From contig CAWCNY010000001.1 of assembly GCA_963797095.1 (NCBI GenBank), positions 416,001 through 480,000 on the forward strand: a stretch of DNA of 64,000 nucleotides, in the 5' to 3' direction. The stretch is from an uncultured Chloroflexia bacterium (GTDB lineage: Bacteria > Chloroflexota > Chloroflexia > QHBQ01 > JADMIH01). Position numbers and translations under genes: made by a program. Under the pieces are notes generated by a model. The model was not told the origin of the DNA. It ran no database searches and saw only the letters and a program-made list of their open reading frames with translations. Position 1 is the stretch's first letter. Every line of letters begins with the position of its first letter. This document shows, piece by piece, positions 29,459 to 57,780 of the stretch.

Positions 29459-29539
29459 CTCCCACCGTTCTCCCACCGCTACCGCAACATATATATCCGT
29501 CGTTTATCTTTCGTCTTTCGTAGTCCGTCTCGCAGACAA

Positions 29540-32332: not shown

Positions 32333-32487
32333 ACGCAAATATGATTTGCTGTTAGGCTGCAATCAGCGAGTTTTGCAGAGCACCAAACCGCTGCCGGAAT
32401 AGCCGGCGTTGTTCAGACAGCGGCACCTGATCCAAAACCTCGCATCGGATAGTAGCGCTGCTTGATCCCTCGGTGGTCTTGCTCATA
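32266..32487 (-). mobile_element. IS6 right-end remnant with internal deletion
   Basis: IR GGAAGTGTCAGAA; pieces encoding EQDHRGIKQRYYPMRGFG and VPLSEQRRLFRQRF. Confidence 0.75.
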
Positions 32488-32571
32488 GGGTCGAAGAGCG
32501 GCGCGCCACAGTCTTGCAACTGCACGTTTCCGCCCAGCGCCCTCAGAACTGGGCGGGCAACTCGTCGCTGC

Positions 32572-33839
32572 TGTAGTGTGTAAATACCCGTCCGACGCCT
32601 GGATCTCCCTTGTGTACGGGTCAGAGTCGGTTTATGCTTTTGCATGCCCACCCATTTCTACCTGCTGGTGCAGCTTCTCAGACTGCTCTTGGATCTGCTC
32701 GCCACCCGCCGTTTGTCTGACCAGCACAAGGACCTTGAGATCCTCCTGCTTCGCCACCAGCTCCGTATCCTGCAGCGCAGACTCCCCAACTCCCGGCCAC
32801 CCCGCGTCTCTGTCTGGGAGAAAGGCATTCTCGCGCTGCTCGCTGCCCAATTCAGAAGGTACACCGAAGGCACGCGTCGCACCCTGGATGAAGTCGTCTT
32901 GCTGTTCAAGCCCGACACAGTCCTTCACTGGCACCGACAACTGGTCAGACGAAAATGGACCTTTCGACGGGTTGGCAGACCATGCGTTGCAATTGAGTTG
33001 GCAGAGCTCATAGTTCGGCTGGCCCAAGAGAACCCAAGATGGGGTTACAGCAAGATCCAGGGGGAGTTGCTCAAGCTTGGTTACTCGGTCAGCCGATCTA
33101 GCGTGAGAAACGTCCTCAGAAGCCATCGGATCCCGCCCGCTCCACAGCGTAAGAAGAGTGGCACCACTTGGCGGAGCTTTCTTGGGCACTATGCCCACCA
33201 GATGTTAGCCGCTGATTTCTTCACGGTAGAAACCGCACGCTTGAGGACATTGTATGTCTTGTTCTTTATCGAGCTGAGCACTCGCCGAGTGCATCTATCC
33301 GGTTGCACTACCCATCCGACGTCTGCGTGGGTGACACAGCAAGCGCGAAATCTCGCCTGGGAGTTGGGCGACATGCAGGATATCCAGGATGTGGGAGATC
33401 GAAAGTTGCCAATACGCTTCCTGATCCACGACCGAGACGCCAAGTTCACCTTCCGTTTCGATGTCGTGTTTGCTTCAGAGAGCATCGAGACGATACTCAC
33501 TCCGTACCGGTGCCCTAAAGCGAATGCGTTTGCTGAGCGCTGGGTTCGGACAGCGAGGGAGGAATGCCTGGATCAACTGCTCATAATCAGCGAGGGGCAC
33601 CTACACCGAGTGCTAGCCGAGTATGTGGAGTATTACAACCAAAGAAGGCCGCACCAAGGTATCGGCCAGCGTATTCTGGTGCCCGTTTCAGTGAGAAGGG
33701 CAGCCAAGCCAGCAGTCGGAAGTGTTGTTAGCCTTGGTCGCCGGGATGTGCTTGGAGGGGTCATCCACGACTACGATTGGGTCATTATCGATGCTGCATA
33801 AGCCCCTTCCTGTGCACGGACGAGTTATTGCACACTACA
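32572..33839 (+). mobile_element. IS481-like element
   Basis: IRs TGTAGTGTGTAAATACCCGTCC and (reverse complement) TGTAGTGTGCAATAACTCGTCC. Confidence 0.85.
32644..33801 (+). CDS. Integrase-core (rve) transposase
   Basis: AADFFTVET, HDRDAKF, NAFAERWV, YYNQRRPHQG. Confidence 0.9.
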   Translation: MPTHFYLLVQLLRLLLDLLATRRLSDQHKDLEILLLRHQLRILQRRLPNSRPPRVSVWEKGILALLAAQFRRYTEGTRRTLDEVVLLFKPDTVLHWHRQLVRRKWTFRRVGRPCVAIELAELIVRLAQENPRWGYSKIQGELLKLGYSVSRSSVRNVLRSHRIPPAPQRKKSGTTWRSFLGHYAHQMLAADFFTVETARLRTLYVLFFIELSTRRVHLSGCTTHPTSAWVTQQARNLAWELGDMQDIQDVGDRKLPIRFLIHDRDAKFTFRFDVVFASESIETILTPYRCPKANAFAERWVRTAREECLDQLLIISEGHLHRVLAEYVEYYNQRRPHQGIGQRILVPVSVRRAAKPAVGSVVSLGRRDVLGGVIHDYDWVIIDAA

Positions 33840-35166
33840 GGCCCCCCTTTTTGGTGCCAGTGCCATCTTGGCCATCTTGGCCATCTTGGCCATCTTGATC
33901 AGTGGCATTGGGGGCACTCACTGCAGAAGCAGCAGGCGCTGCAGAAGCATTGGTACGGATGACTTCGAGGTAGGCATGTGCAAACATAGCCAGCGTGATA
34001 TGACGGTACCATGCATTCCAACGCCGCACTTCATATTGATCCAGCCCCACATTCCCTTTGGCTGCCTCAAAGCTTTCCTCAATCGCCCACCTCACACCTG
34101 CTACCCGCACCAACTCCTCAACAGGTGTAGCGTCTGGACCAAAAGCAAGATAGTAAGCAAGTTCCGTAGGGTCGCTCAAACTGCGCCGAGCCAGTAGCCA
34201 ACGGGCCATGTGAGCCGTACCAGCTCTGTGCTGGTGAGGGAGTTGAATACAAGCCCACTCATAGAGCCGCTCTCCTTGGCTCCCTTCCCCTGCGGAGAGT
34301 GTGGCCCATGCCTGCGCCTCCAGTTCGCCGATCAAGGTATCTGCTCGTTGCTGGTGACCGGCGCGCCAGATAGCGTGATCACAGGAGACCGCCAACACGT
34401 AGGAGTGTTGATTAGTTTCTAACCAGTGCCGTAATTCGCTGTCGTCCCCGTAAACTGCATCTCCCGTCACCCACCCAGCCGGAGTTGGAACCTGACCCCC
34501 AAACGCCCGCGCTAGCATCTGCTGAGCAAGCTGTGGTTTGGTAGCAAACACTACCTCGTCCGGTACGCCTGCCTCCTTGCGGCGCTGCTCATCAAGTGCC
34601 CACTCTTTTGGCAGATACAGTTCTCGGTCCAAGAAGGTATGTCCGTTAGGGCTTGCATAGGCGAGAAAGACGCCAATTTGGCAGTTCTCGATGCGCCCTG
34701 CTGTTCCACTGTACTGCCTCTGCACGCCGACCGACTTGGTACCCTTCTTGATGAAGCCGGTCTCATCCACGATTAGCACTCCCCGTCCCCGAGGATCGCC
34801 AAGATGCTCGACCACGTAGGAGCGCAGGTCGTCGCGGACAGCATCAGCATCCCAGTGAGCGGCATTGAGCAGGCGCTGTACTCCTTGTGGCCCAGCTTCG
34901 CCCAGGTGCTCAGCCAATTGCCAGCCATTCTTGCGCTCGACACGATCCAGGAGTGCTGCCAGATACCGCAGGGCTCGATCCCGGACTTCAGATCGGCGGA
35001 ACCGGCTACTGATACGAACATGCAAGGCATCCAATCCCCCTCGCCAGCCCTCAATGTCCTCTCGCCATATACGTTCTTGCTCTGTCTGCTGCGTTTGCAC
35101 TCTTCTCTCACTCGTCATCATCTGGTATCCTCCCTCCATTTCCATTCTAATCAGGATACCATACAT
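33835..35166 (-). CDS. IS701-family transposase, 3' end clipped by IS481
   Basis: [42 protein letters not shown]. Confidence 0.9.
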
Positions 35167-35190
35167 TTGGATATAAGTGTCGCTGTAGTA

Positions 35191-35270
35191 TTAGCAGGCT
35201 GCTGGTCACGGCGTATCAATGACGAGCACCGCCTCGTGTACCAGGTACTCGAAGACAAGATCCGCATCCT
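35191..35270 (+). pseudogene. yoeB: Txe/YoeB toxin fragment before the transposon
   Basis: LAGCWSRRINDEHRLVY...IRIL; N-terminus lost at the IS701 end. Confidence 0.85.
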
Positions 35271-35579
35271 GGGGATCCGACCTCATCCGGACAAAAAACA
35301 ACGGTACAATTCGGTTAGGCTGGGGCTATTTGCCATAAGATGTATTCTCTTTCTCGATGTCGTTCGCTAAGGGCAGATTGTGAGGTGAATAACAAAAGGG
35401 GCGATATCCTGAGCCTGACCGATCCTAGAGAACTTCGGCAAACATTACAGTACTTCCACGCGATCAGTAGCTACAAAATCGAGATACGGGCGATTGTAGC
35501 TATCACATAGCTCAAGTACTAGTACTTAAGGATTAGTACGAATGCTGTACATTGTGAACTATACTACTTGCCGAAAGTA

Positions 35580-35608
35580 TTGACATAGCATTTTAGTCGA
35601 TCTATAAT
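35580..35608 (+). promoter_or_regulatory. Consensus sigma70 promoter of the cargo operon
   Basis: TTGACA-N17-TATAAT exact; upstream palindrome AAGTACTAGTACTT at 35514-35527. Confidence 0.75.
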
Positions 35609-35874
35609 CTGGTTCTCAGCCTCGGCAAATTGCCTAACTTACAAGAAACCTAGCGAACAAGCGGGGGTAGTCCGTTACTTTTACCTCGGCATTTGAGCCT
35701 CAGTTGTACAACCCCTTATTGGTAAGGGACAGGACCATATCTGTTTGGCACAAACATCACTCCGCAGTTTCTACCCTCAATGTCTTGTCTTCGACTAGGT
35801 GATTCTCTTTCTCATCGTTTTAGGCTTTTCCACGATCCTCCAAGGTCGATAGACCGCTAGATAGCGGAGGTCAT

Positions 35875-36423
35875 ATGGATCCGGCCCTTACTCAAGCTAT
35901 TGCTTATGTGTCTATGGTTGCACAGGTCACTCTTGGCCTTGTATTTGCAACCTCCGCCATCGGTAAAGTTCTGAATATGGCCGAATTTGCGCGAACGATT
36001 GTCCAATTCAAACTCTTGCCACCTAGAATTACGAGAGTGGCCGCTACTCTCGTCGTTGTTGGCGAGTCATCAATAGTCGTCCTACTTATGGCTGGAGGTA
36101 TCATGACCTGCCTAGCCGCAATAATGGCTCTGATGCTCCTGCTGATCTTCTCTGGCGCCATCAGTTCGGCTCTCGCCAGGAATCTGGATACCGCATGTAG
36201 TTGTTTTGGGTCCAATCGGGAGCGCATTTCGCCATACGAGCTATGGAGGAATGGTGTTTTGATCCTTTGTTGCTTGTTGGTGCTAGCTCCTCTTGTCATA
36301 GGTACGTCCATCCCTCGCGAAAACGAACTTGCTACCTGGCTTCTGATCGGAACAACGGCAGGGATTCTTACGATTGTCCTAACCAATCTGCATAGAATTG
36401 GTCGGCTGGTACGCATGAGCTAA
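35875..36423 (+). CDS. MauE/DoxX-family membrane protein
   Basis: VF..SA.GK, F...I..F.LLP, ACSCFG (CxCFG), LWRN; GGAGG RBS. Confidence 0.88.
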   Translation: MDPALTQAIAYVSMVAQVTLGLVFATSAIGKVLNMAEFARTIVQFKLLPPRITRVAATLVVVGESSIVVLLMAGGIMTCLAAIMALMLLLIFSGAISSALARNLDTACSCFGSNRERISPYELWRNGVLILCCLLVLAPLVIGTSIPRENELATWLLIGTTAGILTIVLTNLHRIGRLVRMS

Positions 36424-36440
36424 ATACGGAGCGTGGAGTT

Positions 36441-37022
36441 ATGGAATCAATTCTCATATTCAGCAATGTAGCTCTTTGGGTGTTCGTCCTCTTCAACTTC
36501 ATCTTGACGCTTGCCTTAATACAACGATTGGGCTCTGGGCCTGTTTCCGCCGCCACACAGCAAGGTTTGCCAGCAGGAGAGCAGGCACCCCCATTTACAG
36601 CCGAAACACTGGCTGGTGAACAAATCACCCTTTCATCCTTTGCGGGTAGGAATGTGGCATTCATCCTTTTCGGGCTTGACTGCGCACCATGCCTGGAGGC
36701 TCTACCTGACTACGAGGCGCTTTCTCCAAAGGCTAAGCGCAAAGGCACAGAGATTGTGTTAGTAAGTCTGAACACTTTGGAGAACACCCGAGCATTTGCG
36801 GATGAACACAAGGTTCAGTGCCCAGTGATTATCGGGAACAAATCTTTTATGACAGACTACAAGGCGCGTGGCACGCCATTTTACACTCTCGTAGATGGTC
36901 AGGGCAAAGTTATCTCATCAGGGCCACCAAGCCGTAATGTGAAAGGCTGGCGCGAGTTAGCAAGTTCCTGGGAGGCGGTGGAAGATATTGTGCTTGAACC
37001 CGCTGGCGCCGCCGGCAATTGA
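36441..37022 (+). CDS. Membrane-anchored TlpA/MauD-like thioredoxin-fold protein
   Basis: N-terminal TM LW..V.FN..L.LAL.QRL, G..AP.F, CAPC, cis-Pro motif GTPF. Confidence 0.88.
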   Translation: MESILIFSNVALWVFVLFNFILTLALIQRLGSGPVSAATQQGLPAGEQAPPFTAETLAGEQITLSSFAGRNVAFILFGLDCAPCLEALPDYEALSPKAKRKGTEIVLVSLNTLENTRAFADEHKVQCPVIIGNKSFMTDYKARGTPFYTLVDGQGKVISSGPPSRNVKGWRELASSWEAVEDIVLEPAGAAGN

Positions 37023-37125
37023 GATGGGAAAGGAGGTGCTTGCGTAACTATAAGGATTTCGATTAGCAGGTTTGGATTGATGTGAAGACTCATGAGTAGA
37101 GGAAGGTACCTCAAAGGAGAAGGAT

Positions 37126-37446
37126 ATGGACAGCCTTGCAACTACGCTACCTATCACGAATACCTTGCTCGCCGTTGTTGACCAGCTAGGTAAGCGCGTT
37201 CGGATCCTTGATGTTCTGGTCAAGATGGCCGCAGATCGTATTACGCCCATCAGGAGTGCATCTGCAGCCTGTGATGGTGCGGTATGCTACACTCAATGTG
37301 AGCAGACCGAAGACTGTTGCACATGCGGCATCAATCAGCATGTACAGCTTATTAGGTACAAAGCAGTGGAAGTGTTTGGCTGCGACGGTGCAGACTATTG
37401 CCCGGGACCATGCTCTTCCAGTTGCCCGTTCTGTAACGGCTGCTAG
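37126..37446 (+). CDS. Cys-rich precursor peptide (leader plus 12-Cys core)
   Basis: AAGGAGAAGGAT RBS; residues 1-47 have no Cys and end ITPIRSASA; residues 48-106 have 12 Cys. Confidence 0.75.
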   Translation: MDSLATTLPITNTLLAVVDQLGKRVRILDVLVKMAADRITPIRSASAACDGAVCYTQCEQTEDCCTCGINQHVQLIRYKAVEVFGCDGADYCPGPCSSSCPFCNGC

Positions 37447-37755
37447 AAACAGGTTGAGCGATTACGCTGGGCCGCAAAGATTACCGCATGATAGCTCCTG
37501 ATAGCTCTCAAATACATGTCAGCCCAGGAGCGCGCAGGTTACCGTGAGCGGCTGTTGTGCAGTCACAGGCGGGGCAAGTAGTCAGAATGGGATCAATTCA
37601 GCTAATCTGCCATTCCAAGAAGTATGGCCTTTGTCAGCTTGGATGGGTTCCAATCAGTTAGGAAGAGCGCACGACCTGGCGAATCTAACTCGTCAGGTCG
37701 TGCGCGCACACTTCGACGCGGCTTCACCTGCTCATCTCGTAAGTAGCTAAGCAGG

Positions 37756-38427
37756 GTGGAGCCAGCTAGCGCACAACCCGAGTTGACGCAGGTTTTGTAC
37801 TTATTGGACCTGGAGGGTATTGCTTACTTGGAAAGGGTGTCGGTAGAGTTCATTGGCTGTCTCATGCTCGTTCTGTCGATCCTTCTGGCGGGCGGCTGTG
37901 TCGTGCTGTGGTTTTCCTTTGTCATCGTCAGAGTTGAAAACAATAGTATGGAGCCAACTCTCAAACACGGTGAGCGCGTGCTGATGTTCCGCCTCTGGCC
38001 CGACAGGTGGCTACGAAGGGGACAAGTTGTCATCATCTTGCCCTTGTTGCGCAATCGACCTGAGACACATCTGAGCCGCACGGTCAAGCCAGGGCGCAAG
38101 CCATTTATTAAGCGCATCGTTGGTTTGCAAGGAGACATCATCACAGCCCGAATCGCTGACCGGAATTCGCCGCATGAAGCGTACGATCCGACCTATAATA
38201 GCAACGGTCAACGAACTTGGCATATACCTCCCCGCCATATCTTTGTGCTTGGAGATAATTACCCTCGGGGCGAGGATTCTCTCGTCTGGGGACCGATCCC
38301 TGAGTGGAATGTTCTGGGTATTGCCTTACTCAAGTTGCCAATAGGGAGGTTAGGACTGAGAGAACGTGCGCGGTATGCAGATACCCTTACTTGCACCAAG
38401 ATGAGCGAGTTTCGGAGAGGCGGCTAG
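37756..38427 (+). CDS. S26-family signal peptidase (true start possibly ATG 37864)
   Basis: TM then NSMEPTL (Ser), FIKRIVGL.GD (Lys), FVLGDN...DS..WGP. Confidence 0.9.
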   Translation: MEPASAQPELTQVLYLLDLEGIAYLERVSVEFIGCLMLVLSILLAGGCVVLWFSFVIVRVENNSMEPTLKHGERVLMFRLWPDRWLRRGQVVIILPLLRNRPETHLSRTVKPGRKPFIKRIVGLQGDIITARIADRNSPHEAYDPTYNSNGQRTWHIPPRHIFVLGDNYPRGEDSLVWGPIPEWNVLGIALLKLPIGRLGLRERARYADTLTCTKMSEFRRGG

Positions 38428-38584
38428 GTGTTGCCTTCCAGACTACAGAGGTTAACTTGGTCATTCCATGCCAACATTATCGAGCTTCAGTGGATAGAGT
38501 TTATGGAGAGATCGACCAGAAGTCTTCTTGCACACCAAACAGGTGTACGATATTTAACGCCAGTTCCAAGGTCACTAATCCAAC

Positions 38585-39592
38585 ATGGCCGAAGTAATAG
38601 CTACATCTCACACACATGAGCAAGAACTACTAGCTGCGTCTCTCAGGATGGAGAGCCCGTTCCGAATCGTCTGGCGGCGATTTCGCAAGAAGAAAGCGGG
38701 CGTCTTAGGGGTCATTTTGCTGGTTCTGCTGTCCATTGCGTGCATTGTGCTGCCCATGTTGTCAACATTTGATATCCAGCAAGTGAATGCAGTTCAAGGT
38801 TACGCCACATTTGGACAGACAGACCTGCTTGTGGGTGGTACGCATTGGCTAGGCACCGACTGGCTGGGCCGCGACTTTATGGTTCGCCTGTTCGTTGCTG
38901 GACGCACCACTCTGTTTGTGGCACTGATTTCTACATTGCTGGTGGTAATTATTGGTTCCATAGTTGGCGGGATAGCCGGTTATTACGGCGGGTGGATAGA
39001 TACGGTGCTGATGCGCTTCATTGACTTCTTACTAGCGCTCCCATTGCTGCCGCTCTTCCTACTTGCTGTCAGATTTCTACGCCAGACCCCAATCCTAAAG
39101 CCGTTATGGCTTGACCCAAACGCAAACTCGTATCTAACACTGGCTGTGATCAGCGGAGTGTTCATTTTGTTTAGTTGGATGGGGTTGGCGCGCCTGGTTC
39201 GGGGCTCAGTGCTGTCTTTGCGTACACTGACTTACGTGGAGGCGGCGCGTGCCCTTGGGTCGAGCAATCGGCGCATTGTCGTCCGCCACTTGCTCCCAAA
39301 TAGCATCGCGCCTATTCTTGTATCCGCCACCTTCGCCGTGGGTGATTTTATCATTCTGGAATCGGTTTTAGCATACTTCAATCAGGGAATCTACGACCCA
39401 CCGCTTCTGTCATGGGGTAATCTGCTAGTCGCCAATCTGACGCTGGCCTATAGCATTACCGAGCCTAACCCCTTCGTGAGCGTGCGCGGATGGCTCTTTT
39501 TCCTGCCTGGCCTCCTGGTGATTGCTACTGTGCTTTCCATCAACTACATTGGCGATGGGCTTCGAAACGCACTCGACCCGCACAGACGATGA
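38585..39592 (+). CDS. OppC/DppC-type ABC permease
   Basis: HWLGTD.LGRD, YVEAARALG, HLLPN, GDGLR.ALDP. Confidence 0.9.
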   Translation: MAEVIATSHTHEQELLAASLRMESPFRIVWRRFRKKKAGVLGVILLVLLSIACIVLPMLSTFDIQQVNAVQGYATFGQTDLLVGGTHWLGTDWLGRDFMVRLFVAGRTTLFVALISTLLVVIIGSIVGGIAGYYGGWIDTVLMRFIDFLLALPLLPLFLLAVRFLRQTPILKPLWLDPNANSYLTLAVISGVFILFSWMGLARLVRGSVLSLRTLTYVEAARALGSSNRRIVVRHLLPNSIAPILVSATFAVGDFIILESVLAYFNQGIYDPPLLSWGNLLVANLTLAYSITEPNPFVSVRGWLFFLPGLLVIATVLSINYIGDGLRNALDPHRR

Positions 39593-39677
39593 AATAAGCC
39601 AATGGAGAATTACACGATTGTAACCCTCATGTCTCCACCATGTCGTGACCGTCAAATGCACGAATAAGTAGGACGCG

Positions 39678-40871
39678 ATGCTAACATACCTGATACGCCA
39701 ATTCATTCAGACACTAATCTTCATCTTGCTTGCGTGGCTAGTGCTTTATACCGTGCTGATTTATCTCATGCCAGGGGGGCCAGCGAACCGTTACAGTGCG
39801 GTAACGCAAGATCGTGCATTCCGTAATACACAGCGCCTCCTGGAGCAGCAGTATAGCCTCGATAAGCCCTGGCCACTCAGTTTCCTGGGGTGGCTCTACA
39901 ATCCTGATGAAATGACCGACACAGTCCTCGATGAAAACGACAAGCCAATTGAGATCACGAAGGGTATTGATTTTACAGTCGGCCCTATTCACCTCAGAGG
40001 GTCCGGTATGCTGACGGGAGATTTCGGTCGTCAAGAGCGCGTTCTAGGAGCACGCTTTATACCTTCGCAGCCGGTTGCAGACGCTATCGGTGCACGCTGG
40101 GTCAACACGGTCACGATGATAGGTTTGGCCTTCATAATAGCCGTGCTAGCGGCCATCCCCATAGGAATCATAGCAGCAGTAAGGCAAGGAACCTTGCTGG
40201 ACAATACGCTGACTTTCGCCACTTTTACGGGATTCTCTATACCCCCTTTTATGCTTGGTCTACTAATGGCGATCATTTTTGGGATACTGCCCTATCAGTT
40301 CAGAGCACGCTTTGGTTGGGAGTGGCTCCCCTATTTCCCAGGAGCGCTTGCATCAAGTAGTCTAGATTTGTCCAATAACCTCGCTGATCGCCTGTACCAT
40401 CTGGTGCTGCCAGTCGCCACTCTGGCCTTGCCCCAGATAGCGCTGTTATCCAGGCATGTGCGCTTCTCCATGCTTGAGATTATTGGGCAGGACTACATAC
40501 GAACCGCCTGGGCTAAAGGGTTATCCGCCAGACGAGTGATATTAAGGCACACGTTTCGTAATGCCCTAATACCCATAATTACAACAGTGGGGCTGATTAT
40601 GCCCGTCTTGCTAACAGGGGCAGTCATGGTGGAATCAGTTTTCGGTTACCCAGGCATGGGACAGCTTTATTTCAAGGCGCTCGGCGGGTGCCTCGCAACC
40701 GGTACAACGGGCGAGGGATTATGTCCTCCGGGCCAAGCTCTACTTCCCTTGGACTATCCGATGACCCTTGCGCTTACCATTATGATGATTGCGGCGGTCG
40801 CCTTCGCCAATATGATTGCGGATATCTTCTACACTTTCGCCGATCCAAGGATCAACTACAAGACTCTTTAG
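39678..40871 (+). CDS. OppB/DppB-type ABC permease
   Basis: QDYIRTA.AKGL, H..RNALIP, ESVF.YPGMG, DPRI. Confidence 0.9.
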   Translation: MLTYLIRQFIQTLIFILLAWLVLYTVLIYLMPGGPANRYSAVTQDRAFRNTQRLLEQQYSLDKPWPLSFLGWLYNPDEMTDTVLDENDKPIEITKGIDFTVGPIHLRGSGMLTGDFGRQERVLGARFIPSQPVADAIGARWVNTVTMIGLAFIIAVLAAIPIGIIAAVRQGTLLDNTLTFATFTGFSIPPFMLGLLMAIIFGILPYQFRARFGWEWLPYFPGALASSSLDLSNNLADRLYHLVLPVATLALPQIALLSRHVRFSMLEIIGQDYIRTAWAKGLSARRVILRHTFRNALIPIITTVGLIMPVLLTGAVMVESVFGYPGMGQLYFKALGGCLATGTTGEGLCPPGQALLPLDYPMTLALTIMMIAAVAFANMIADIFYTFADPRINYKTL

Positions 40872-40932
40872 GTCGAGTTTTCAAGCATAGAAGGCTTCTA
40901 GACAATTCCATTTCGATAGTTCCCAACCACCA

Positions 40933-41030
40933 ACATCCGATAATATTGATTATCTGCTGGTTTCCCTGTGGTATACTGCTGATAACGCGCAAAATCTGGG
41001 GTGCTAATCCGCCTAAAGTACATCCGATAA
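40933..41030. promoter_or_regulatory. Candidate resolution site for the tyrosine recombinase
   Basis: Inverted GATAAT-ATTG-ATTATC core (40939-40954); ACATCCGATAA repeated at 40933 and 41020; another GATAAC at 40981. Confidence 0.55.
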
Positions 41031-41045
41031 CAGGGAGAGTGGGTT

Positions 41046-42047
41046 ATGGGTGCCAGCAATGCCAGGACAAGAGCCACTAGGAGTACCGATGCTACGACTG
41101 CTACCACTACCAAGAACTCATCTACTCCTCTGGCGCCCTCTGTAGCCCTGGTCACCTATCTGGAGTGGCTCAACAAGCAGCCTCTGGCCGGTAACACCCG
41201 GCGCACTTACCGTGTTCGTGTAACCCAGTACTGCGACTTCCTGGCGAGCTACCCCACTCGCTATGGTGACTATGGTGACCCCCTGCGGGAACGGTCCGCC
41301 CGCGACTACGCCGTCCGTGACTACAAAGCACATCTGCAAACTGTTCGCCATGCCAAACCCAGCTCAGTCAATCTCACCCTGGCAGCCCTGGATCACTTCT
41401 ACCGCTTCCTGAGCCTTGGCCCTCCCCGTGTTGATCGAGAGGACCTGCCTCAGCAGGCTCCGAAGGCGTTAGAACAAGACGAGCAAGTGCGCTTCTTGCG
41501 TGCAGTGGAGCGCAGCGCCTCGGTACGTGATCGAGCCATTGCTCTGTTGCTATTTTACACCGGTCTACGAATCGGTGAAGTTGCCGCCCTTGATGTCGAC
41601 GATGCCCCCGTGTCTGCCCGCAAAGGCAAGGTCATCGTCCGGTTGGGGAAAGGCCAGACCTACCGTGAAGTGCCACTGAACGTCGAAGTTCGCAATGCTC
41701 TCACCGCATGGGTGGAGGATCGAAGCAAGGACTTTCCTCAACATGGTTATGGTCAATACGATACCAAGGTCGGTAATGATGCTTTGTTCTTGAATCGCTC
41801 AGGTGGTAGGCTCTCATCCCGCGCCATTGACTCGCTGCTGCGTCGTCTAGCCACCGAAGCTGGATTGAGCCTGTCCGCCCATACCTTACGCCACACCTGC
41901 CTTACCAACCTTGTGCGGCAGGGTACGGACCTGGTGCTGGTGGCGGAACTTGCCGGACACAAACGCCTTGAGACCACTCGTCGCTACAGCCTGCCGAGCG
42001 CAAGCGAGCGGGAAGCTGCTATGGAAAAGCTGAAGGTACGCTACTAA
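41046..42047 (+). CDS. Tyrosine recombinase (TnpI-like resolvase)
   Basis: TGLRIGE (R), GKG (K), HTLRH (HxxR), AGH, RY (Y); directly upstream of tnpA. Confidence 0.9.
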   Translation: MGASNARTRATRSTDATTATTTKNSSTPLAPSVALVTYLEWLNKQPLAGNTRRTYRVRVTQYCDFLASYPTRYGDYGDPLRERSARDYAVRDYKAHLQTVRHAKPSSVNLTLAALDHFYRFLSLGPPRVDREDLPQQAPKALEQDEQVRFLRAVERSASVRDRAIALLLFYTGLRIGEVAALDVDDAPVSARKGKVIVRLGKGQTYREVPLNVEVRNALTAWVEDRSKDFPQHGYGQYDTKVGNDALFLNRSGGRLSSRAIDSLLRRLATEAGLSLSAHTLRHTCLTNLVRQGTDLVLVAELAGHKRLETTRRYSLPSASEREAAMEKLKVRY

Positions 42048-42197
42048 GGCCACTAGCGCCACTAGCGCCACTAGCGCTACAAACGCCACTAAGACTGCTG
42101 AGCTTGAGCTACTAATGTCCTCCGGTTCGAACCAGGGGTTCAATTAACGTGCCGTTTATTAATTCATTCTTGAATACATAATTGAGGTGAGCCACTA

Positions 42198-45100
42198 ATG
42201 CCTGGCCAGTTTCTCACGGAGGCGGAGCGCGCTCGTTTGAACCGCTTTCCAGACGAGATTGCACCCGACGATCTGAATACATATTTCACACTTAGCCCAT
42301 CGGATCGCCAGTACATCCAGCTTCATCACCGGCCCGCGACTCAGCTGGGCGTCGCCCTTCAGCTCTGTGCCCTGCGCTACCTTGGCTTCTCTCCCGCCAA
42401 CTTGAAGGCGGCTCCCAAAGATGTGGTCCACTTCCTCTCCCAGCAACTTGCAGTGTCAGATGATACTCTGACCAGCTATGGGCAAAGAGCGCAAACTCGC
42501 ACCGAGCAGTGGCAACTGGTGCAGGAATACCTGGGTTACATGGGAGCAACGTCAGCAGACCTGGAGATGCTTACCACCTGGCTCATTGAGCGGGCACAAG
42601 AACACGATAAGCCTACTGTGCTCTTCCAATTGGCAGCCGAAAAGCTGCACACCGACAAGATCGTGCGGCCGGGAGTAACTGTCCTGGAACGGATAGTCGC
42701 TCGTGCTCGAGATCGAGCTTACAAGGAAACTCTACACAAACTTCAACCATTGTGCTGAGTGCGGAGCGTGGAGAGCGTGGAGAGCGTGGAGAGCGCGGAG
42801 AGCGACGAGCGTGGTTGGACAGCTTGCTGGTGCCCGATGAGAGTTTGGGCCGCACCCGCTTCGACTGGCTCAAGAGGCGAGCGAGAGGCAACACCCCTAA
42901 AGCTGTGCTGTCGGCTATCGCTCGCATTACCTATCTGCGAGAGCAAGGGGTCGACAACTGGGATTTGTCCGCTATAAACCTGAACCGGCGCAAGTTCCTG
43001 GCGCGGTTGGGCAGGAAAACCTCCAGTTGGGCGCTTGGACGGGCACCTGGGTACCGCCGTTATCCGATCCTGGTGGCCTTTCTGCAGCAGACGCTCGAGG
43101 AGTTGATAGATGAAATCCTCGATCTGTTCGACCGCTACCTGGCTGATGCCGATAGCACCGCTCGCCAGAAACTGGACGAGTTCCGACGCACCACGGCAAG
43201 GGCAGCCAATGAGAAAGTGGTCCTCTTTGAAGAAGTGGGCGAGATCGTGTTGAACCCGGAAATCGCAGATGGGCAGTTGCGCCGATCCATTCACGAGCAG
43301 ATCTCTCCCGAAAAGATGAGAGTGGCGGTGGAGGAATGCAAGCGCCTACGCCGACCGCTTGACGACAACTACTACGACTTCCTGGCCGACTGCTACCCTA
43401 CGCTGCGCCAGTTCACGCCTGCTCTTCTTTCTACTCTCACTTTCCGGTCTAATCGAGCAACCAGTGCCTTGCTTGAAGCCGTCGACTTCGTGCGACAGTT
43501 GAACGAGGAGCGTAAGCGCAAGGTATACACTACCGCTCCAATGGGGTTCGTGCCGTCTCGTTGGCACTCCTACCTCCGCCCAATCAGCCCCATCAGTAAA
43601 GTAACCAGTCGGGATACGAATAAGGATACAAAGAGATACCGCAACACGCACAAGATGAACAACAAAGGGGAGAAGGATCATGGAGAGATCTCCCGCCGTT
43701 ATTACGAGTTGTGCGTGTTGTGGGAGTTGAGGGTAGCGTTGCGAGCAGGCAATATCTGGGTGGAGGGCAGCCGCCGCTATGCCGACCCGGAGAGCTACCT
43801 TATGTCACAAGCGGAGTGGAAGACCAGGCGGGCTGAATTCTGCACGCTGATGGGTGCTCCTATTGACGGTGCCGAACGCCTGGGCGAGCATAAGCAGGCG
43901 CTGACTGAGCACATGAACGAACTTGGCGAGGTGTTGGACCGCGACGAGCATGAGGATGGGCACGGGCACGGCTATGGGTATGAACAAGTGAGGCTGGAAG
44001 ATGGGGAGTTGGTGATTTCGCCTTTGGAAGCTGAGGAGTTACCGGACAGCATGCATTTGTTGGAGGGTCAGGTAGCGGCACGTCTGCCGAGGCTGGAACT
44101 GGCTGACCTGGTGGTTGAGGTAGATGGCTGGACCCACTTTACTGACCATTTCACCCATGCGGCAGGGAGCGAACCCAGAACACAAACAAACCTGGGTCTG
44201 CATGACATGGAGCACATCACCGAGTTCTCGCCCAAGGAGTTGGCCTGGTGTTCGAATTGGTACTTGAGGGACGATACCCTTCGCCCGGCAATCGCCACGT
44301 TGGTGAACCACCAACACCGCCAACCTCTGAGCCAGCTGTGGGGTGGAGGCACACTCTCCTCCTCGGACGGTCAGCGCTTTCCAGTGGGAGTGCCCTCGCG
44401 TCACGCACGTCCCCTGCCTCGATACTTTGCCTACCGGGACGAAGGGGTGACGTTTTACACCTGGACGGGTGACCAATGGCCACAGTACGGTACGAAGGTG
44501 ACACCGGTGACAGCCCGTGATGCCGCTTATGTGCTGGATGAGATTCTCGGCAATGAGAGTGAGTTGGAGATTGCCGAGCATACTACAGATACTTCGGGCT
44601 ATACCGAAATGCTGTTTGCCGCGTTCGCGCTTCTGGGACTGCAATTCGCGCCACGCATCCGCGACCTCCAAGATCAGCGCCTCTACCGCCTGCCTGGGAT
44701 GGTAGTGAGTCCCGACGTAGCTCCCCTCTTCAAAGGCACGATCAACACGGGCTTAATCCTGGAGAACTGGGACGAAATGCTGAGGCTAGCGGGGTCTCTG
44801 AAACTGGGCTTGGTCACAGCCTCGCTGACGTTAGGGAAGTTGCAGACGGTGCCCCGCAAGAATGTATTGGCAAAGGCTCTGCAAGAATATGGGCGGCTCG
44901 TAAAGACGTTGTTCATCCTGCGCTACCTGAAAAGCCCTGAGTATCGCCATCAGATAGAGCGGCAACTGAACAAGGGAGAGTCTCTGCATGCACTGCGACG
45001 CTTTCTGTTCTTCGGCAATTTGGGTCGGTTGCGCAAGGGAGAGGAAGAAGAGCACACGACACAGGCGCAAGTGCTGACGCTGGTCACAAATACCGTGGTG

Positions 45101-45319
45101 GTGTGGAACACAGTGTATATGATGGCGGTACTTGATGAACTACGAGCGGGAGGCTATGAGGTACGGGACGAAGATGCGAAACACCTCTCGCCAGCACGCC
45201 ACGAGCACATCAACCCACATGGCAAGTATCACTTCGATTTGGAGCGGGAGTTGGGGCGGCAAGGATTGCGACCATTGCGCAAACCTTCATCAGTACCTAT
45301 GAAACGACAACCCAACTAA
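42198..45319 (+). pseudogene. tnpA: Tn3-family transposase, frameshifted at about 42752
   Basis: N-terminal LG.ALQL..LRYLG, SSDGQRF, TDTSGYT, LNKGE.LH.L, SP...EHIN..G.Y; split into two ORFs. Confidence 0.9.
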
Positions 45320-45358
45320 TCCAACCGTTGTTTTTTGTCCGGATGAGGTCGGATCCCC

Positions 45359-45385
45359 ATCCTCGCGTGCCGGTACCATTATTGA
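45359..45385 (+). pseudogene. yoeB: yoeB C-terminal end after the transposon
   Basis: ATC CTC GCG TGC CGG TAC CAT TAT TGA = ILACRYHY*, the YoeB C-terminus. Confidence 0.85.
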
Positions 45386-45570: not shown

Positions 45571-47097
45571 TTACCTGCCCAGTCTGCCCGTAAGCAGGTA
45601 ATAAGCATCATTCCACTGCACTTCCTTTTTGAAACCTGATAGCCGAGTATCTGCATCTATCAGGAGGAACTCCAGGCCTGCGATCTCGGCAAAATCCGCA
45701 AGGTGCTGCGACGTTAGCGAGAAGCTAAAGCCTGTGTGGTGGGCGCCGCCCGCCAGGATCCAGGCAGTGGTCGCGGTCTTGAAGTCGGGCCTGGGCAACC
45801 ATAGAGCTCGCGCCGTTGGCAGCTTGGGCATTGCCTCTTCTCGCTCCACCGCGTCTACCTCATTCACAATCATGCGGAAGCGGTTGCCCAAGTCAACGAT
45901 CGAGGTGGCCACTGCAGGCCCCGTCCGCGCGTCGAACACCACACGCACGGGGTCCGCCTTGCCGCCGATGGAGAGGGGGTGCACCTCAAGCCGGGGCCTG
46001 CTGCCGCTCACGGCTATAGTCTCGCACACTTCGAGCATGTGCGAGCCGAGTATCTTTGTGTCGCCCTTGCCGAAGTGATAGGTGTAGTCCTCCATGAAAG
46101 AGGTGCCACCTTCGAGCCCTGCGTCCATGACCTTCATGGCGCGCACCAGCGCCGCGGTCTTCCAGTCGCCCTCTGCTCCGTACCCGTAGCCGTCTGCCAT
46201 CAGTCGCTGCGCAGCCAGGCCTGGTAACTGGTCTATCCCGTGCAGATTCTCGAAGGTGGTGGTGAAGCCCTTGAAGTTGCCCTCCTCAAGGAAGCGTCGT
46301 ATACCCGCCTCCAACCGTGCTCCCGCCCGGAGGCGCTCATGTCTCTCGCCGTTCTTGCCAAGCTCTGCGGCCACGTCGTACTGGTCGTTGTACGCCTCTA
46401 CCAAGTTATCTATCTCCAGCTCGGGTACTGCCTCTACGTACTCGACCAGATCGCCCAAGCCGTAGCCGTTGACCGAATAGCCGAAGCGCAGTTGCGCCTC
46501 TACCTTATCTCCCTCAGTGACCGCCACCTCTCGCATGTTATCGCCGATGCGGGCGAAGCGAGCGCCCTGCGCATCGGCCCACGCGCATGCCGCTCTTGCC
46601 CACGTGCCAAGCTCCTTCTGCACGTCTTCGTCCTGCCAGTGGCCCACGACCACCTTGCGGTGCAGGCGAAGGCGCGAGCCGATGAAGCCGAACTCGCGGT
46701 CTCCATGGGCTGACTGGTTCAGGTTCATGAAGTCCATGTCGATGTCGGCCCACGGGATCTCGCGGTTGTACTGGGTGTCCAGGTGCGCCAGCGGCTTCTG
46801 CAGCAGCGACAATCCCGCGATCCACATCTTGGCGGGCGAGAAGGTGTGCATCCACGCCACTAATCCCACGCACTTCTCGGTGGAGTTGGCCTCGAGGCAC
46901 AAACGACGGATCTCGTCAGGGCCAGTTAGCACAGGTTTAACCACTACTCTCACCGGTATAGCTACCACCCTGTCCAGCGCATCGCCAATCTCCTTGGAGT
47001 GCTCAGCCACTTTCTCCAGCGTCTCGGGACCATAGAGGTGCTGGCTGCCTGTGATGAACCAGGCCTCGTATTGCTTCAGGTCAATTGCAGAAGGCAT
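45571..47097 (-). CDS. araA: L-arabinose isomerase
   Basis: [38 protein letters not shown]. Confidence 0.97.
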
Positions 47098-47153
47098 GCT
47101 CGTTTCTTCTCCTTTTGTCCTAGTGTCGTCGTGTCCTCATGCCGCCTACCCAC

Positions 47154-47795
47154 CTACTGGCCATAGACATTCTTATACCTATAGTGCAACTTGGCAACGT
47201 CCTCAGCCGGGATATTGTCAGGGGTGCCGAGTTGGAGGGCCAGCCAGACGGATGCGGCCACATCTTCAGTCATCACTGCGGCTTTGACCGCGGCATGGGC
47301 ATTCTTGCCAATCGTAAACACACCATGGTTCTTCAGTAGTACCGCTGGGGAGTTGCCTATGCTCTCGACCACCAGCTTACCGATTGACTCGTCACCGATC
47401 AGCGAGAAGCCGCCGCACGGTATCTCGCCGCCGAACTCATCGGCGATTGCCGTGAGCACCACAGGGATCGGCCTCCCTACTGCAGCGAAAGCAGTTGCGT
47501 AGCGGGAATGGGTATGTACCACGCCACCCACATCGGGGCGATGCCGGTAGATATATAGGTGGCTATAGGTATCGGAGGACGGCTTGAGGTCACCTTCAAC
47601 AATATTCCCCTCCAGGTCAAGCACCACCATATGCTCGGGACGCAGATGCTCGTAGCGTATGCCTGAAGGCTTTATAGCCACAAGCCCGGTTGCCGGGTCG
47701 CGGCAGCTGACGTTGCCCCCGGTCCAGGACACCAACTGGTTTTTCGGTAGCTCCAGGTGCAACTGGTAAAGTTCTTCTTTCAGTTCCTCTAGCAT
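47154..47795 (-). CDS. araD: L-ribulose-5-phosphate 4-epimerase
   Basis: WT.GNVS, IKPSG, PSSDT..H, VVHTHS, NHG, VYGQ. Confidence 0.92.
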   Translation of the reverse strand: MLEELKEELYQLHLELPKNQLVSWTGGNVSCRDPATGLVAIKPSGIRYEHLRPEHMVVLDLEGNIVEGDLKPSSDTYSHLYIYRHRPDVGGVVHTHSRYATAFAAVGRPIPVVLTAIADEFGGEIPCGGFSLIGDESIGKLVVESIGNSPAVLLKNHGVFTIGKNAHAAVKAAVMTEDVAASVWLALQLGTPDNIPAEDVAKLHYRYKNVYGQ

Positions 47796-47921
47796 AGTTT
47801 CTCCATTATTGTAGGACGGGTACCGCAGCTTTCAAGCTGTAACGTGATTTCGACTGCTAGCGACACCATGAATAGTGTAGTCCCCAAGTTATACCACGAG
47901 CGGTGTGGCACTAAATGCCTT

Positions 47922-49523
47922 CTACCTGAGGGTATCCACTGCGGCTCGTTCGATAACAAGTCCCTTCTTGTAGCGTTCCATGAACGCCGCAAAACCCTCG
48001 ACATCCCTCTGATCGGAAGCTATCGTCGTGCCGTGTTCCCCGGCAAAGACCTTGTTGTCGAGATAGGCTTCCAAGGGCTCATTCGTCGCCTTGCGGAGCA
48101 TATAGGCGGCAAGCAGTGCAATCCCCCAGGCGCCGCCCTCGCCTGCGGTCTCCATCACAGAAACGGGAACATTCATCGCTGCTGCCATGATCCTCTGCCC
48201 CACTTCCGCGGTTTTGAAGAAGCCGCCGTGACCGAGAACTTGCTCGAGTTGCACCTTTTCTTGTTCGAAGAGGATGTCCAATCCGATCTTCAAGGCGCCG
48301 AGTGCCGAGAACAGATGCACACGCATGAAGTTTGGTAGTGTGAAACGGCTTTGGGGCGTGCGAACGAATAGTGGGCGCCCTTCTTCAAGGTGGGTGATGT
48401 GCTCACCAGAAATATAATTATAAGCAAGGAGACCACCGCAATCTGCGTCGCCTGCCAGTGCCTCTTTATATAACACTTCAAACAGCTTGGCTTCACTCAT
48501 CTCCACACCAAGCGCACTGGCAAATTCCTCGAACAGATCGACCCATGCATTGAGATCGGACGTGCAGTTATTGCTATGCACCATGGCGACAGGCTTGCCT
48601 GTGGGCGTGGTCACCATGTCAATCTCGGGATATACTCTCGACAGAGCCTTCTCCAGAACGATCATGGCAAAGACTGATGTTCCTGCGGATACATTGCCGG
48701 TTCGCTCTGCAACGCTGTTCGTCGCGACCATGCCTGTGCCGGCGTCACCCTCAGGAGGACAGAGCGGGATACCCACCCGCAGTCGTCCGGTGGGGTCAAG
48801 CAACTTTGCGCCTTCTTCAGAGAGCACACCCGCGGCATCCCCGGCTACAAGCACCCTGGGCAGGATATCCTGGAGTTTCCACGGGAGCCCTTCCACTGCT
48901 AGATGTTCGTTGAACAGTTCTATCATGTGCTCATTGTAGTCGTTGGTCTGGCTATTTATGGGGAACATGCCTGATGCTTCGCCAACGCCCAATACCTTTT
49001 GCCCCGTCAGCTTCCAATGGACACAGCCTGCCAGCGTGGTCAGATAGTTGATGTCCTTGATATGAGGTTCGTTATTCAATACCGCCTGGTAGAGGTGTGC
49101 AATGCTCCAACGCTGGGGGATGTTAAATTGGAGGAGATCGGTGAGCTTCTCTGCTGCCTGGGCGGTGATTGTATTTCGCCATGTGCGAAACGGGGCGAGT
49201 AGATTCCCATTCTTATCGAATGCCATATAACCGTGCATCATTGCGCTGAAGCCGATGGCGCCAACAGTCTGGAGAGGGGTGTTATACCTCTCAAGCACTT
49301 CGTTGCTGAGCTTCCGAAAGCTGTGCTGCAGCCCTGTCCAAACATGGTCCAGGCTGTATGTCCAGATGCCGTCTTCGTACCGGTTCTCCCACTCATAGCT
49401 TCCTGATGCAATGGGTGCATGATCCTTGCCGATCAACACTGCCTTGATGCGCGTCGAACCGAACTCCACACCAAGAACGGTCTTTCCACTCTCAATTGCT
49501 TTCCCGGTAGCGTTTTGATCCAT
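47922..49523 (-). CDS. araB: FGGY-family sugar kinase, probable L-ribulokinase
   Basis: [23 protein letters not shown]; context with araA and araD. Confidence 0.8.
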
Positions 49524-49786
49524 GTTTCTGCATCCTATTTCTTGAAATCGTTAGTTCGCACGTATAGCACCTACCGCGCTGCACAAGCGTGAGCCTGTCT
49601 CGGGACGAAATGGGGAAGCAGGCGCTGGTAAAGGCTGTAAAATTCGTCGTCCCATATCTACCATATGTCAGACTTGCTGCTTTCAGTCTGATCAGTTATA
49701 TCACTCATGTGGTGGCACTCTCTGTTTGAGGGTAGCTTACCGCGTGGTCCGAAGAAGCGTCACTGTAATACTAGAAGAGTAGAGGC

Positions 49787-51790
49787 TTATTGAGGGGCCT
49801 CCAGCAGGAGCACATCACGAGCTGCTATAGTGGCCCTCCCGGCAGAAACTATGCTACCGTGCAGTAGGTCGACGTAAGTTCCAGGTAAGCTCACCTCACG
49901 GGGGGCAGGTGTATGATTGAGGACAAACAACAGCCTATGGCCATTCCCTTCCCGTGTGACCACCTCGACTCCTTGCGGTGCCGATTCGGCTGTAGCAAGA
50001 CCCGCCTCAGGCAGAAGCCAGCGCAGCAGCATCTCGCGGGCGGCAACATCAAGTGCCGCACCCACGTACATCGCCTTCCCATTACCGTATCGGTTTCTGG
50101 TGATGGCGGGCTGACCCGAGTAGAACTCCTGAGCGTACCGCGCAATAACCTCCGCCGTAGTGGGAGCAAGAATGTCAGCCCAGGCGTATGCGGCGCCACG
50201 AACCGCTCTTTCCAGCCCTGGAACGTGCCACTCGATATCGTTCGTCACGCCCGCAGGTAGGGAATCGTACTCGGCCACCTCTATACCGCACACCTCGGCC
50301 AGAAGGCCGGGTAGCCGCCGGTTCACGACAGCATTAGCTTCGTCTTTGACACCACTTCGGAAGAAGCAAACTAGGGTACCGCCGCCCCTCACATAAGATT
50401 GCAAGTTTGCCGCCACGTCGCTCGAGAGAACGTACAGCGGCAGCGCCACCACGAGCCTGTACGCGCTGAGGTCGTCGGTCGGAGAGATTACGTCGATACC
50501 TAAGTTGCTATCGTGGAAAGCGCGGTAAACGTCATGGAAATGCTTAGGGTAATCATAGCCCGGGTTATTGGCCTGCACCTGAAAGGCGAAACGTGAGTCG
50601 TATGAAAGGATCATGGCAACCTGAGCGTGAGGGCGCGTGCCGAGGAGGGTGTCGCCAACCTGCTTCAGCTCGGATCCCATGCGTGCCGCCTCCTCATAGC
50701 GCCGCCCGGGCGTGCCGGCGTGGTCCAGCAACCCGTGCCAGTATTGCTCGGTCCCGTGTCGTGCAGTTCTCCACCGGAAGAAGATAATGGCGTCGGCACC
50801 GTGCGCAATCTGCTGGTAGGCCCAGAGACGCAACTCGCCGGGGCGCGGCACAACGCTTACCAGGTCCCAACCGCCTGGCCCGGCTTGCTCCTCCATGACC
50901 CAGAAGTTCTTCTGCTTCAACCCCCTCATGGTCGTGGCAGCCAAGGCAGGAGCGCTCGGATCCACGTCGGCTTCGAGGCTCCATTGCGTGCGGGGGTAAT
51001 TGTCCCAGGAGACGAAGTCGAGATCCCTTGCCAGATCAAAGTAGTTGATCTGGTTGTAAATGAAGCCCATCAGATTGTGCGTGATGAACTGTGACGACGT
51101 GTGGCGGCGCAGGATGTCAATCTGCATCTTCTGGTAGTCGACGTAAGTGTCGGAGGTGAAACGACGGTAATCTAGAGCAAGCCCGGGGTTTGGAACCCCG
51201 CCCGACTTCAGAGGCACCGGGATCTGTGACCAGTCCGTATAAACATGGCTCCAGAAGATGGTGCCCCAGGCCGAGTTGAGCGTCTCCAGCGTGCGGTAGC
51301 GGTCTTGCAGCCACTGCTGAAAATGCGCCTGGCAAACCGGGCAATAACAGCGATCTCCGAACTCGTTGTCGATCTGCCAGCCAACAACGTTGGCGTTACC
51401 AGCGTAGTGTTCGGCCATTGCTGTAACGATTGCTCTGGAGTGCTCACGGTAGAGCGGGTGACTGGGGCAATACTCCCGGCGGTTACCGAAAGTGCGCCGC
51501 AACCCAGTCTCATCCACGAGAAAGAGCTCGGGGTGAGCTTGCATCAGCCATGGCGGAGGGGACGCCGTCGGGGTGCCGAGGATAACACGGATGCCTTGCT
51601 CGGCGAGAATATCCATCGCGCGGTCGAGCCAGGAGAAATCGAAGGTGCCTTCGCGCGGCTCAAGATAAGACCAGGCGAACTCCGCCAGCCGAGTGATGTT
51701 GAACCCTGCTTTGGCCATCAAATCCGCATCGATGGGCCAACGCTCTTCAGGCCAGTGCTCAGGATAGTAGTCGACTCCGTACGTGAACAT
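49787..51790 (-). CDS. GH42 beta-galactosidase
   Basis: YYPEHW, EFAWS..EP, WQIDNE, WVMEEQ, FFRWR. Confidence 0.92.
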   Translation of the reverse strand: MFTYGVDYYPEHWPEERWPIDADLMAKAGFNITRLAEFAWSYLEPREGTFDFSWLDRAMDILAEQGIRVILGTPTASPPPWLMQAHPELFLVDETGLRRTFGNRREYCPSHPLYREHSRAIVTAMAEHYAGNANVVGWQIDNEFGDRCYCPVCQAHFQQWLQDRYRTLETLNSAWGTIFWSHVYTDWSQIPVPLKSGGVPNPGLALDYRRFTSDTYVDYQKMQIDILRRHTSSQFITHNLMGFIYNQINYFDLARDLDFVSWDNYPRTQWSLEADVDPSAPALAATTMRGLKQKNFWVMEEQAGPGGWDLVSVVPRPGELRLWAYQQIAHGADAIIFFRWRTARHGTEQYWHGLLDHAGTPGRRYEEAARMGSELKQVGDTLLGTRPHAQVAMILSYDSRFAFQVQANNPGYDYPKHFHDVYRAFHDSNLGIDVISPTDDLSAYRLVVALPLYVLSSDVAANLQSYVRGGGTLVCFFRSGVKDEANAVVNRRLPGLLAEVCGIEVAEYDSLPAGVTNDIEWHVPGLERAVRGAAYAWADILAPTTAEVIARYAQEFYSGQPAITRNRYGNGKAMYVGAALDVAAREMLLRWLLPEAGLATAESAPQGVEVVTREGNGHRLLFVLNHTPAPREVSLPGTYVDLLHGSIVSAGRATIAARDVLLLEAPQ

Positions 51791-51799
51791 GGACTTCCC

Positions 51800-57769: not shown

Positions 57770-57780
57770 CTAAGCTGGTC

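Follow-up and report, generated by a model that had tools for sequence, protein, structure and literature searches.

A 10-kb Tn3-family element with a putative TnpI-type recombinase module and a candidate peptide cluster as passenger in a Chloroflexia bacterium

Did the genes for a cysteine-rich peptide reach their site in an uncultured Chloroflexia bacterium as one mobile unit, which kind of element carried them, and does that element delimit the whole peptide pathway? We addressed these questions in a stretch of 64,000 nucleotides (GenBank assembly GCA_963797095.1, contig CAWCNY010000001.1, positions 416,001 to 480,000; hereafter the window), where a pair of terminal inverted repeats (IRL and IRR) bounds an element of 10,088 bp at positions 35271-45358. 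Very probably, this is a Tn3-family transposon with a TnpI-type resolution module that took up a peptide cluster as passenger and inserted into yoeB, and whose transposase gene tnpA has since been broken.

Boundaries of the element and the state of tnpA

Counted from the terminal GGGG, IRL and IRR are identical at 35/35 bases and diverge thereafter (positions 36-38 differ). Among the flanking repeat lengths tried (3-11) only the 5-mers match, giving a target site duplication (TSD) of ATCCT, and a 5-bp target duplication is the norm for the Tn3 family. Terminal repeats of this family are typically about 38 bp long and start with GGGG (PMC9579193). The window contains no further copy of the repeat except one 21/35 match; a composite of two elements is not supported, as the element holds no internal repeat remnant. 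Both flanks belong to yoeB. A plasmid search with the left flank matched 861 records, with a Txe/YoeB annotation in seven of ten among the matches listed, and the right flank (45359-45385) translates in the same frame as ILACRYHY-stop, a C-terminus also present in two reference YoeB proteins. Since the flanks are consecutive pieces of one yoeB, the insertion is a true one, and a misassembly is an unlikely source of the pattern of repeats, duplication and split gene. Where yoeB borders on the IS701 transposase its 5' part is missing, and no other place in the window was found to contain it.

Table 1. Features of the element and its insertion site (window coordinates)
Feature	Position	Strand	Evidence or remark
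3' third of yoeB (Txe/YoeB), insertion target	35191-35270	+	Pfam 5.5e-9
TSD, left copy (ATCCT)	35266-35270
IRL	35271-35305	+	35 bp, GGGG start
Sigma-70 consensus promoter, TTGACA-17-TATAAT	35580-35608	+	12/12 score
MauE-family membrane protein, 182 aa	35875-36423	+	CxC motif; PF07291 3.6e-26
Membrane-anchored TlpA/ResA/MauD-like thioredoxin, 193 aa	36441-37022	+	CAPC motif; 41% to L021 homolog
Precursor peptide, 106 aa	37126-37446	+	leader of ~48 aa ending ASAA, core of 58 aa
16-bp stem-loop 3' of precursor gene	37667-37705	+	intergenic z = -3.2, 0/100 shuffles
S26 (signal peptidase I-type) peptidase	37756-38427	+	PF10502 5.3e-19; TIGR02227 above cut-off; start codon uncertain
OppC-like ABC permease	38585-39592	+	29% to host permease 60726-61646
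OppB-like ABC permease	39678-40871	+	30% to host permease 61646-62650
Predicted irs	40930-41035	+	inverted core 40938-40955 (6-bp spacer); motif repeated directly at about 40972-40986 and 41023-41031
Tyrosine recombinase (TnpI-type resolvase), 333 aa	41046-42047	+	R175, H279-x-x-R282, H305, Y314 invariant in family alignment
Tn3 tnpA pseudogene	42198-45319	+	PF13700 (DUF4158) 2.9e-51; PF01526 (DDE_Tnp_Tn3) 1.4e-126
IRR	45324-45358	-	35 bp
TSD, right copy (ATCCT), with last codons and stop of interrupted yoeB	45359-45385 (TSD = 45359-45363)	+

All genes between the repeats (cargo, recombinase and tnpA) lie on the plus strand, downstream of a single promoter with a full 12/12 score. The G/C content is 50-53% in the cargo genes, 57-58% in recombinase and tnpA, and 58-59% in the flanks. 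Repeats, TSD and split yoeB support the entry of the whole 10 kb into the yoeB site as one unit. The assignment to the Tn3 family follows from the sequence: a DDE transposase recognised by TnpA profiles, GGGG repeats, a 5-bp TSD and a resolvase with a res-like site. On repeats, duplication, family and movement as one unit we agree with the sequence-only reading made beforehand, which had described perfect 35-bp repeats and an ATCCT duplication around a Tn3-family transposon that moved as a unit; the split yoeB is evidence that it had not used. Its list of enclosed genes also stands for the promoter, the peptide cluster, the two permeases and the recombinase; tnpA is present, but it is broken, which had been missed.

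With 736 bits on NF033527 (cut-off 500) and a retained DDE triad, tnpA is still readily recognised. However, it is split into two open reading frames (ORFs), 42198-42758 (186 aa) and 42752-45319 (855 aa), by a frameshift that falls in an array of 9-bp tandem repeats (near 42750-42805), where a net insertion of 38 nt is present compared with its closest relative L004 (loci with L numbers come from the GTDB scan described below). In addition, about 14 codons are lost in frame near 44183; the residues concerned are kept in 42/42 other TnpAs, and the deletion lies about 20 residues before the position matching R635 of Tn4430, which contacts the inverted repeat (PMC9579193). Frameshift and deletion together make the element non-autonomous, so this copy, judged by its sequence, is now fixed or mobile only with TnpA supplied in trans. 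As a separate observation, 9-bp tandem arrays recur in or near mobile genes of the window (731-759, 33862-33897, 42049-42091 and 42764-42804), and the close Chloroflexia recombinases have low-complexity N-terminal extensions; arrays and extensions are perhaps a trait of the lineage.

The element might have been non-autonomous already on arrival, a cassette mobilised in trans through an intact TnpA encoded in another part of the genome. Perfect repeats and a perfect TSD beside a tnpA with two lesions, the intact recombinase and the interrupted tnpA of L004 would all fit such a course. On the other hand, the 64-kb window contains neither a second copy of the repeats nor a helper tnpA, and after insertion tnpA can acquire two lesions while the repeats are still free of mutations; we consider arrival as a defective cassette possible but somewhat unlikely. 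In the preferred explanation, about 5.6 kb of passenger DNA was taken up between IRL and the predicted resolution site (irs), and the element inserted into the 3' end of yoeB with duplication of 5 bp. As expected from the Tn3 family, TnpA would make a replicative cointegrate. Its resolution by the tyrosine recombinase would take place at the core of irs, and both direct repeats would presumably act as accessory sites, as in related modules.

The recombinase module and its carriers

A single tyrosine recombinase gene lies colinear and upstream of tnpA and is itself preceded by the putative irs. This is the organization of a TnpI-type resolution module, and here the prediction made beforehand appears to be right. 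Four of the 11 GATAAY hexamers of the element fall within 120 bp at the predicted irs, and the symmetric core TAA-N6-TTA occurs at a single site in the whole 10-kb element, at 40938. Tn4430 has an IRS built as IR1-IR2-DR1-DR2 (PMC2847244), and as far as its motifs can be recognised, the irs of the window follows this four-motif layout. Among 190 Tn3 elements compiled in PMC7157771, TnpI is used only by Tn4430, Tn5401 and TnBth4, all from Bacillus.

Relatives of the recombinase are numerous: 2118 of 8000 candidates scored reached E<=1e-60, and a scan of GTDB confirmed 157 loci, the best 80 of which underlie all sibling counts given here (many loci are short contigs). In 58 of the 80, tnpA is colinear and directly downstream of the recombinase gene, with the N-terminus within 200 nt in 52. 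Most of the 58 colinear loci come from Actinomycetota (44), followed by Chloroflexota (8), Myxococcota (2) and one each from Thermomicrobiota, Ignavibacteriota, Bacillota and Verrucomicrobiota (seven phylum labels overall); the closest recombinases, 89% and 71% identical, are from Chloroflexia, and judged from the element by itself the host is thus probably one of the Chloroflexota. The TAA-N6-TTA core was found upstream of the recombinase in 56 of the 74 loci with enough upstream sequence, mostly 116-195 nt before the match, compared with 38 of 3349 control windows, and a stricter irs pattern in 13/74 compared with 8/3349, the pattern having been drawn first from the window and four relatives. 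A literature search by title and start of abstract, which did not extend to TnCentral, ISfinder, subscription papers and most supplements, found nothing on this recombinase or transposon group, and prior naming is possible. In the available part of a classification of tyrosine recombinases (PMC8138268), TnpI appears in the references only and Tn3 is not mentioned.

To place the transposase, trees were computed with IQ-TREE (21 chosen rows, 8 named references) and FastTree (9 named references; 9 TnpAs under 800 aa left out; L051 on an aberrant long branch), each with 1-2 references per subgroup. In the IQ-TREE tree the window TnpA falls into a clade of 10 rows (100/100) without any named reference, sister to rows of the Tn3 subgroup at 94/94 (unstarred). 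Approximately unbiased (AU) tests, with the clade chosen in knowledge of an earlier tree, reject a grouping with the Tn4430-like TnpA (p 0.002; one named reference and one relative) and with TnBth4 (p 3e-45). The TnpA phylogeny that the sequence-only reading had suggested thus sets the element apart from both, as far as 8-9 named references reach. The kinship with a Tn4430/Tn5401 subgroup that it had implied is not supported: these two are placed in different TnpA subgroups (PMC7157771, Table S1), and the window element groups with neither. Judged by its sequence, the element functions in the manner of Tn4430 yet falls outside the Tn4430 subgroup.

The comparison with named elements matches this picture. 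Tn4430 of Bacillus thuringiensis shares the colinear order irs-recombinase-tnpA, an inverted core with two direct motifs, GGGG repeats and aligned DDE residues. Nevertheless, compared with the Tn4430-like copy on pBMB126 (its DDE numbering matches Tn4430), recombinase and TnpA are only 25% and 35% identical and the window TnpA lies in a different clade; moreover, the window element has repeats of 35 instead of 38 bp, a broken tnpA and 5.6 kb of cargo, whereas no passengers are known for Tn4430. Tn5401 and TnBth4 (Tn3 subgroup) likewise have tnpI followed by tnpA and passengers upstream of irs, but against the sequence of TnBth4 (Tn5401 was compared by description) both window proteins are 29% identical, and no toxin-antitoxin pair lies inside the window element. 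In ISNpu13/TnNpu13 of Nostoc (Tn4651 subgroup) a RefSeq tyrosine recombinase is encoded directly upstream of tnpA, as in the window, with identities of 25% (recombinase) and 24% (TnpA). ISNpu13 (L089, 11698-15778, Nostoc plasmid pNPUN04) is listed with resolvase type R in Table S1 of PMC7157771, yet RefSeq annotates this tyrosine recombinase. A TnpS/TnpT system as in Tn4651, with divergent tnpS and tnpT on either side of rst, was rejected: apart from short ORFs that overlap the recombinase gene, nothing upstream of it could be a divergent helper gene.

The same recombinase family is found with TnpAs that group with the Tn3 subgroup (L025, L008, L039, L041 and L048) and with others that group with the Tn4651 subgroup (L020, L023 and L029). 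Within the clade of the window, a Rubrobacter TnpA lacks a tyrosine recombinase next to it; about 11 kb upstream there is a 'recombinase family' gene. Taken together, one recombinase family on several TnpA subgroups and the Rubrobacter case point to a module that may have been swapped between TnpA subgroups.

Sibling elements with other cargo, which the sequence-only reading had recommended to look for, were indeed found among the GTDB loci. Where the tnpA end is in view (34 loci), 14 show a repeat pair, two of them doubtful; the pairs of L052 and L060 look spurious and were not used. Duplications of 5 bp are seen in L048 and L082. The 11 bounded siblings have 0.1-7.3 kb between IRL and recombinase, and Pfam matches in 4 of their 22 ORFs (NmrA, fasciclin, GGDEF and Uma2), none like the cargo of the window. 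L005 is an essentially cargo-less sibling of 4.2 kb with a similar repeat, and its DNA similarity to the window starts only at irs; passenger DNA therefore sits between IRL and irs. The three closest loci share DNA similarity with the element only in the stretch from irs through the recombinase gene to tnpA. Since the siblings either have other, unrelated cargo or lack it altogether, the genes carried by the window element are passengers, possibly with both permeases captured alongside. A relative on an Alicyclobacillus plasmid (L001, recombinase 61% identical) has 53-bp repeats and carries a spore-germination (ger) operon; this element (about 10044-18928) is nested in a Tn4430-like element of 22.5 kb (6622-29181) with 38/38 repeats and a 5-bp duplication.

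Passenger genes and a candidate peptide class

In Streptomyces, decRiPPter listed three mauE-containing candidate families of peptides made ribosomally and then modified post-translationally (RiPPs), with precursors of at least 8 cysteines (PMC7794033). The cargo of the element shows the defining features of the MauE/MauD candidate class in that source: mauE and a mauD-like gene beside a precursor with at least 8 cysteines, and no other mau genes. By its gene content, the cargo thus matches a candidate RiPP class already flagged there. As in the element, mauE (in one family together with mauD) adjoins the precursor gene in those families, and two of the three precursors listed have a similar leader, with an A-x-A-like motif before the cysteine-rich core (compared by eye). 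The core of the window precursor is longer, however, with 12 cysteines in residues 49-106, and its cluster lies on a transposon, is paired with oppC/oppB and likely belongs to a different phylum. In the literature searched, no characterised product of mauE/Cys-rich-precursor clusters was found, nor one on a Tn3 element. During maturation of methylamine dehydrogenase, MauE and a MauD-like protein with thioredoxin fold act on a cysteine-rich substrate (PMC7794033). The cargo shares these two proteins with mauBEDA, but mauA, mauB and mauG are absent from the element and the scanned ORFs of the window, and the thioredoxin scores 37.6 on the MauD equivalog (cut-off 188.6).

Judged by their families, the TlpA-like protein and MauE would act at the membrane, folding and oxidising the core with its 12 cysteines, the S26 peptidase would cut off the leader after the A-x-A motif, and export would be supplied by the host from outside the element. 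The likeliest product, though tentatively so, is a peptide with six disulfides that is secreted and serves in competition; metal binding is a less probable role, and signalling appears somewhat more doubtful still.

Eight precursors form the family, namely that of the window and seven credible relatives among nine phmmer hits (P0004 and P0008, repetitive and non-homologous, were left out of the alignment), with a conserved helical leader and cysteine pattern. A word-index search with the precursor returned only itself (1 of 2 candidates). MauE likewise found itself alone at E<=1e-10 among 607 candidates and no plasmid match, and plasmid searches with S26 peptidase and thioredoxin gave generic signal peptidases and ResA/TlpA proteins, with no cluster among the matches listed. 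A riboswitch in the 5' leader (about 260 nt after the promoter) is not supported: its fold is not unusual (z -1.4), and the Rfam scan gave two chance-level matches only, none of them for this leader. The stem-loop after the precursor gene is possibly an mRNA-stabilising or attenuating element.

A cluster of the same kind occurs at an Anaerolineae locus (L021), which encodes a thioredoxin, a cysteine-rich precursor, a double solute-binding protein (SBP), an S26 peptidase (39% identical), an ABC exporter and a second precursor. Its contig starts at the thioredoxin gene and has no oppB/C in the available part. That thioredoxin, precursor and S26 peptidase recur in L021 speaks for a real pathway formed by the four core genes. 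At the same time, the exporter and SBP of L021 are missing from the element, where oppC and oppB come without ATPase or SBP; thus the repeats of the window do not define the pathway, contrary to what had been proposed. The permeases were probably co-captured or belong to an incomplete import/immunity module. In L047, oppB/oppC lie about 9 kb upstream of the recombinase, not shown inside an element. The SBP of L021 (966-3575, 869 aa) has two solute-binding domains, and a role in immunity or sensing is possible.

The L021 locus also raises the question of whether this transposon group is recurrently linked to MauE/TlpA/S26 peptide clusters and provides a main route of their spread. Its element is distant from that of the window (recombinase 59%, TnpA 39% identical) and abuts such a cluster, its degenerate IRL truncating the second precursor gene. 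Yet this is one locus of 80, with the cluster outside the 4.6-kb repeat pair and no TSD visible, and what the remaining bounded siblings carry is unrelated, in a set with many short contigs; a recurrent link therefore seems unlikely. Still less probable is a sequencing or assembly error as the cause of the tnpA frameshift: the frameshift does lie in a short tandem array, but a 38-nt net insertion relative to L004 is no homopolymer slip, the in-frame deletion is a second, independent lesion, and the neighbouring host genes are full length. Finally, an autonomous Tn4430/Tn5401-type transposon whose repeats delimit a complete peptide system including the permeases, as gene order, co-oriented cargo behind one strong promoter and similar G/C content might suggest, is largely refuted and highly improbable, given a tnpA broken twice, recombinase identities of 25% and 29% to the TnpIs, AU rejection of either grouping, and a transporter set that differs from that of L021 and encloses no ATPase, SBP or exporter.

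Several observations weigh against the preferred explanation of a Tn3-family transposon with a TnpI-type module and a peptide-cluster passenger. No exporter, ATPase or binding protein is encoded among the ORFs between the repeats, and junctions and tnpA lesions are those of the assembled sequence. The precursor has no Atlas relative and no convincing PDB relative (best E 0.038), and its AlphaFold model has a pLDDT of 48, which leaves product and activity without structural support. The similarity to the L021 precursor is weak (30% across 40 aa, E 0.012), and tblastn with mauE and the precursor gave no match in any of the 80 sibling loci. For the window and the four relatives that shaped it, the enrichment of the irs pattern is partly circular. 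Moreover, 22 of the 80 loci lack a colinear tnpA (5 have it elsewhere, 17 not at all); of the latter, L011, L013, L014, L015 and L019 form one well-supported clade, and part of the recombinase family may thus serve another type of element.

Surroundings and meaning

The element lies in a window rich in other mobile DNA. Positions 1-20700 contain a split ISL3, an IS605-family TnpB (8551-9624), IS6, a group II intron reverse transcriptase with HNH (12410-14413), two IS3-type elements and PIN toxins. Nested insertions lie at 32340-35194, to the left of the element. They include a short sequence resembling the IS6 gene found around 9.9-10.1 kb. An IS481/IS3-like element (about 32572-33839), whose presumed ends read TGT...ACA, abuts the IS701 transposase end, and IS701, its end likewise presumed, borders the remainder of yoeB at 35191. 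At 28589-29476 (minus strand) and 3392-6453 there are several ORFs of 100-300 aa without Pfam match. To the right, 45571-63994 (minus strand) holds ordinary host genes for arabinose catabolism (araA/araD/kinase), GH42, a LacI regulator and a complete opp-type ABC system.

The element does not represent a new kind of system, as cargo on Tn3 elements is ordinary and the copy in the window is defective. Rather, its recombinase probably marks a large, uncatalogued module of TnpI-like resolvase and irs. That such a widespread, swapped module goes together with recurrent capture of MauE/TlpA/S26 clusters in Chloroflexota is doubtful as a joint reading, the capture part resting on two loci. If the joint reading were true, Actinomycetota and Chloroflexota of soil and sediment would share the module with no fewer than four further phyla, and it would have been swapped among Tn3, Tn4651 and a clade without a name. 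Resolution of the TnpI type would then be a common trait and not an exception confined to three Bacillus members, and the 10-kb unit would be a cassette ready for expressing an uncharacterised class of RiPPs. At least 58 loci outside the known Bacillus trio have a predictable resolution site, so that the architecture of irs and the shuffling of resolvases can be tested beyond Bacillus. For the MauE/MauD cysteine-rich peptide clusters hitherto known from genome mining, the element offers a compact, promoter-bearing example that shows their horizontal movement.

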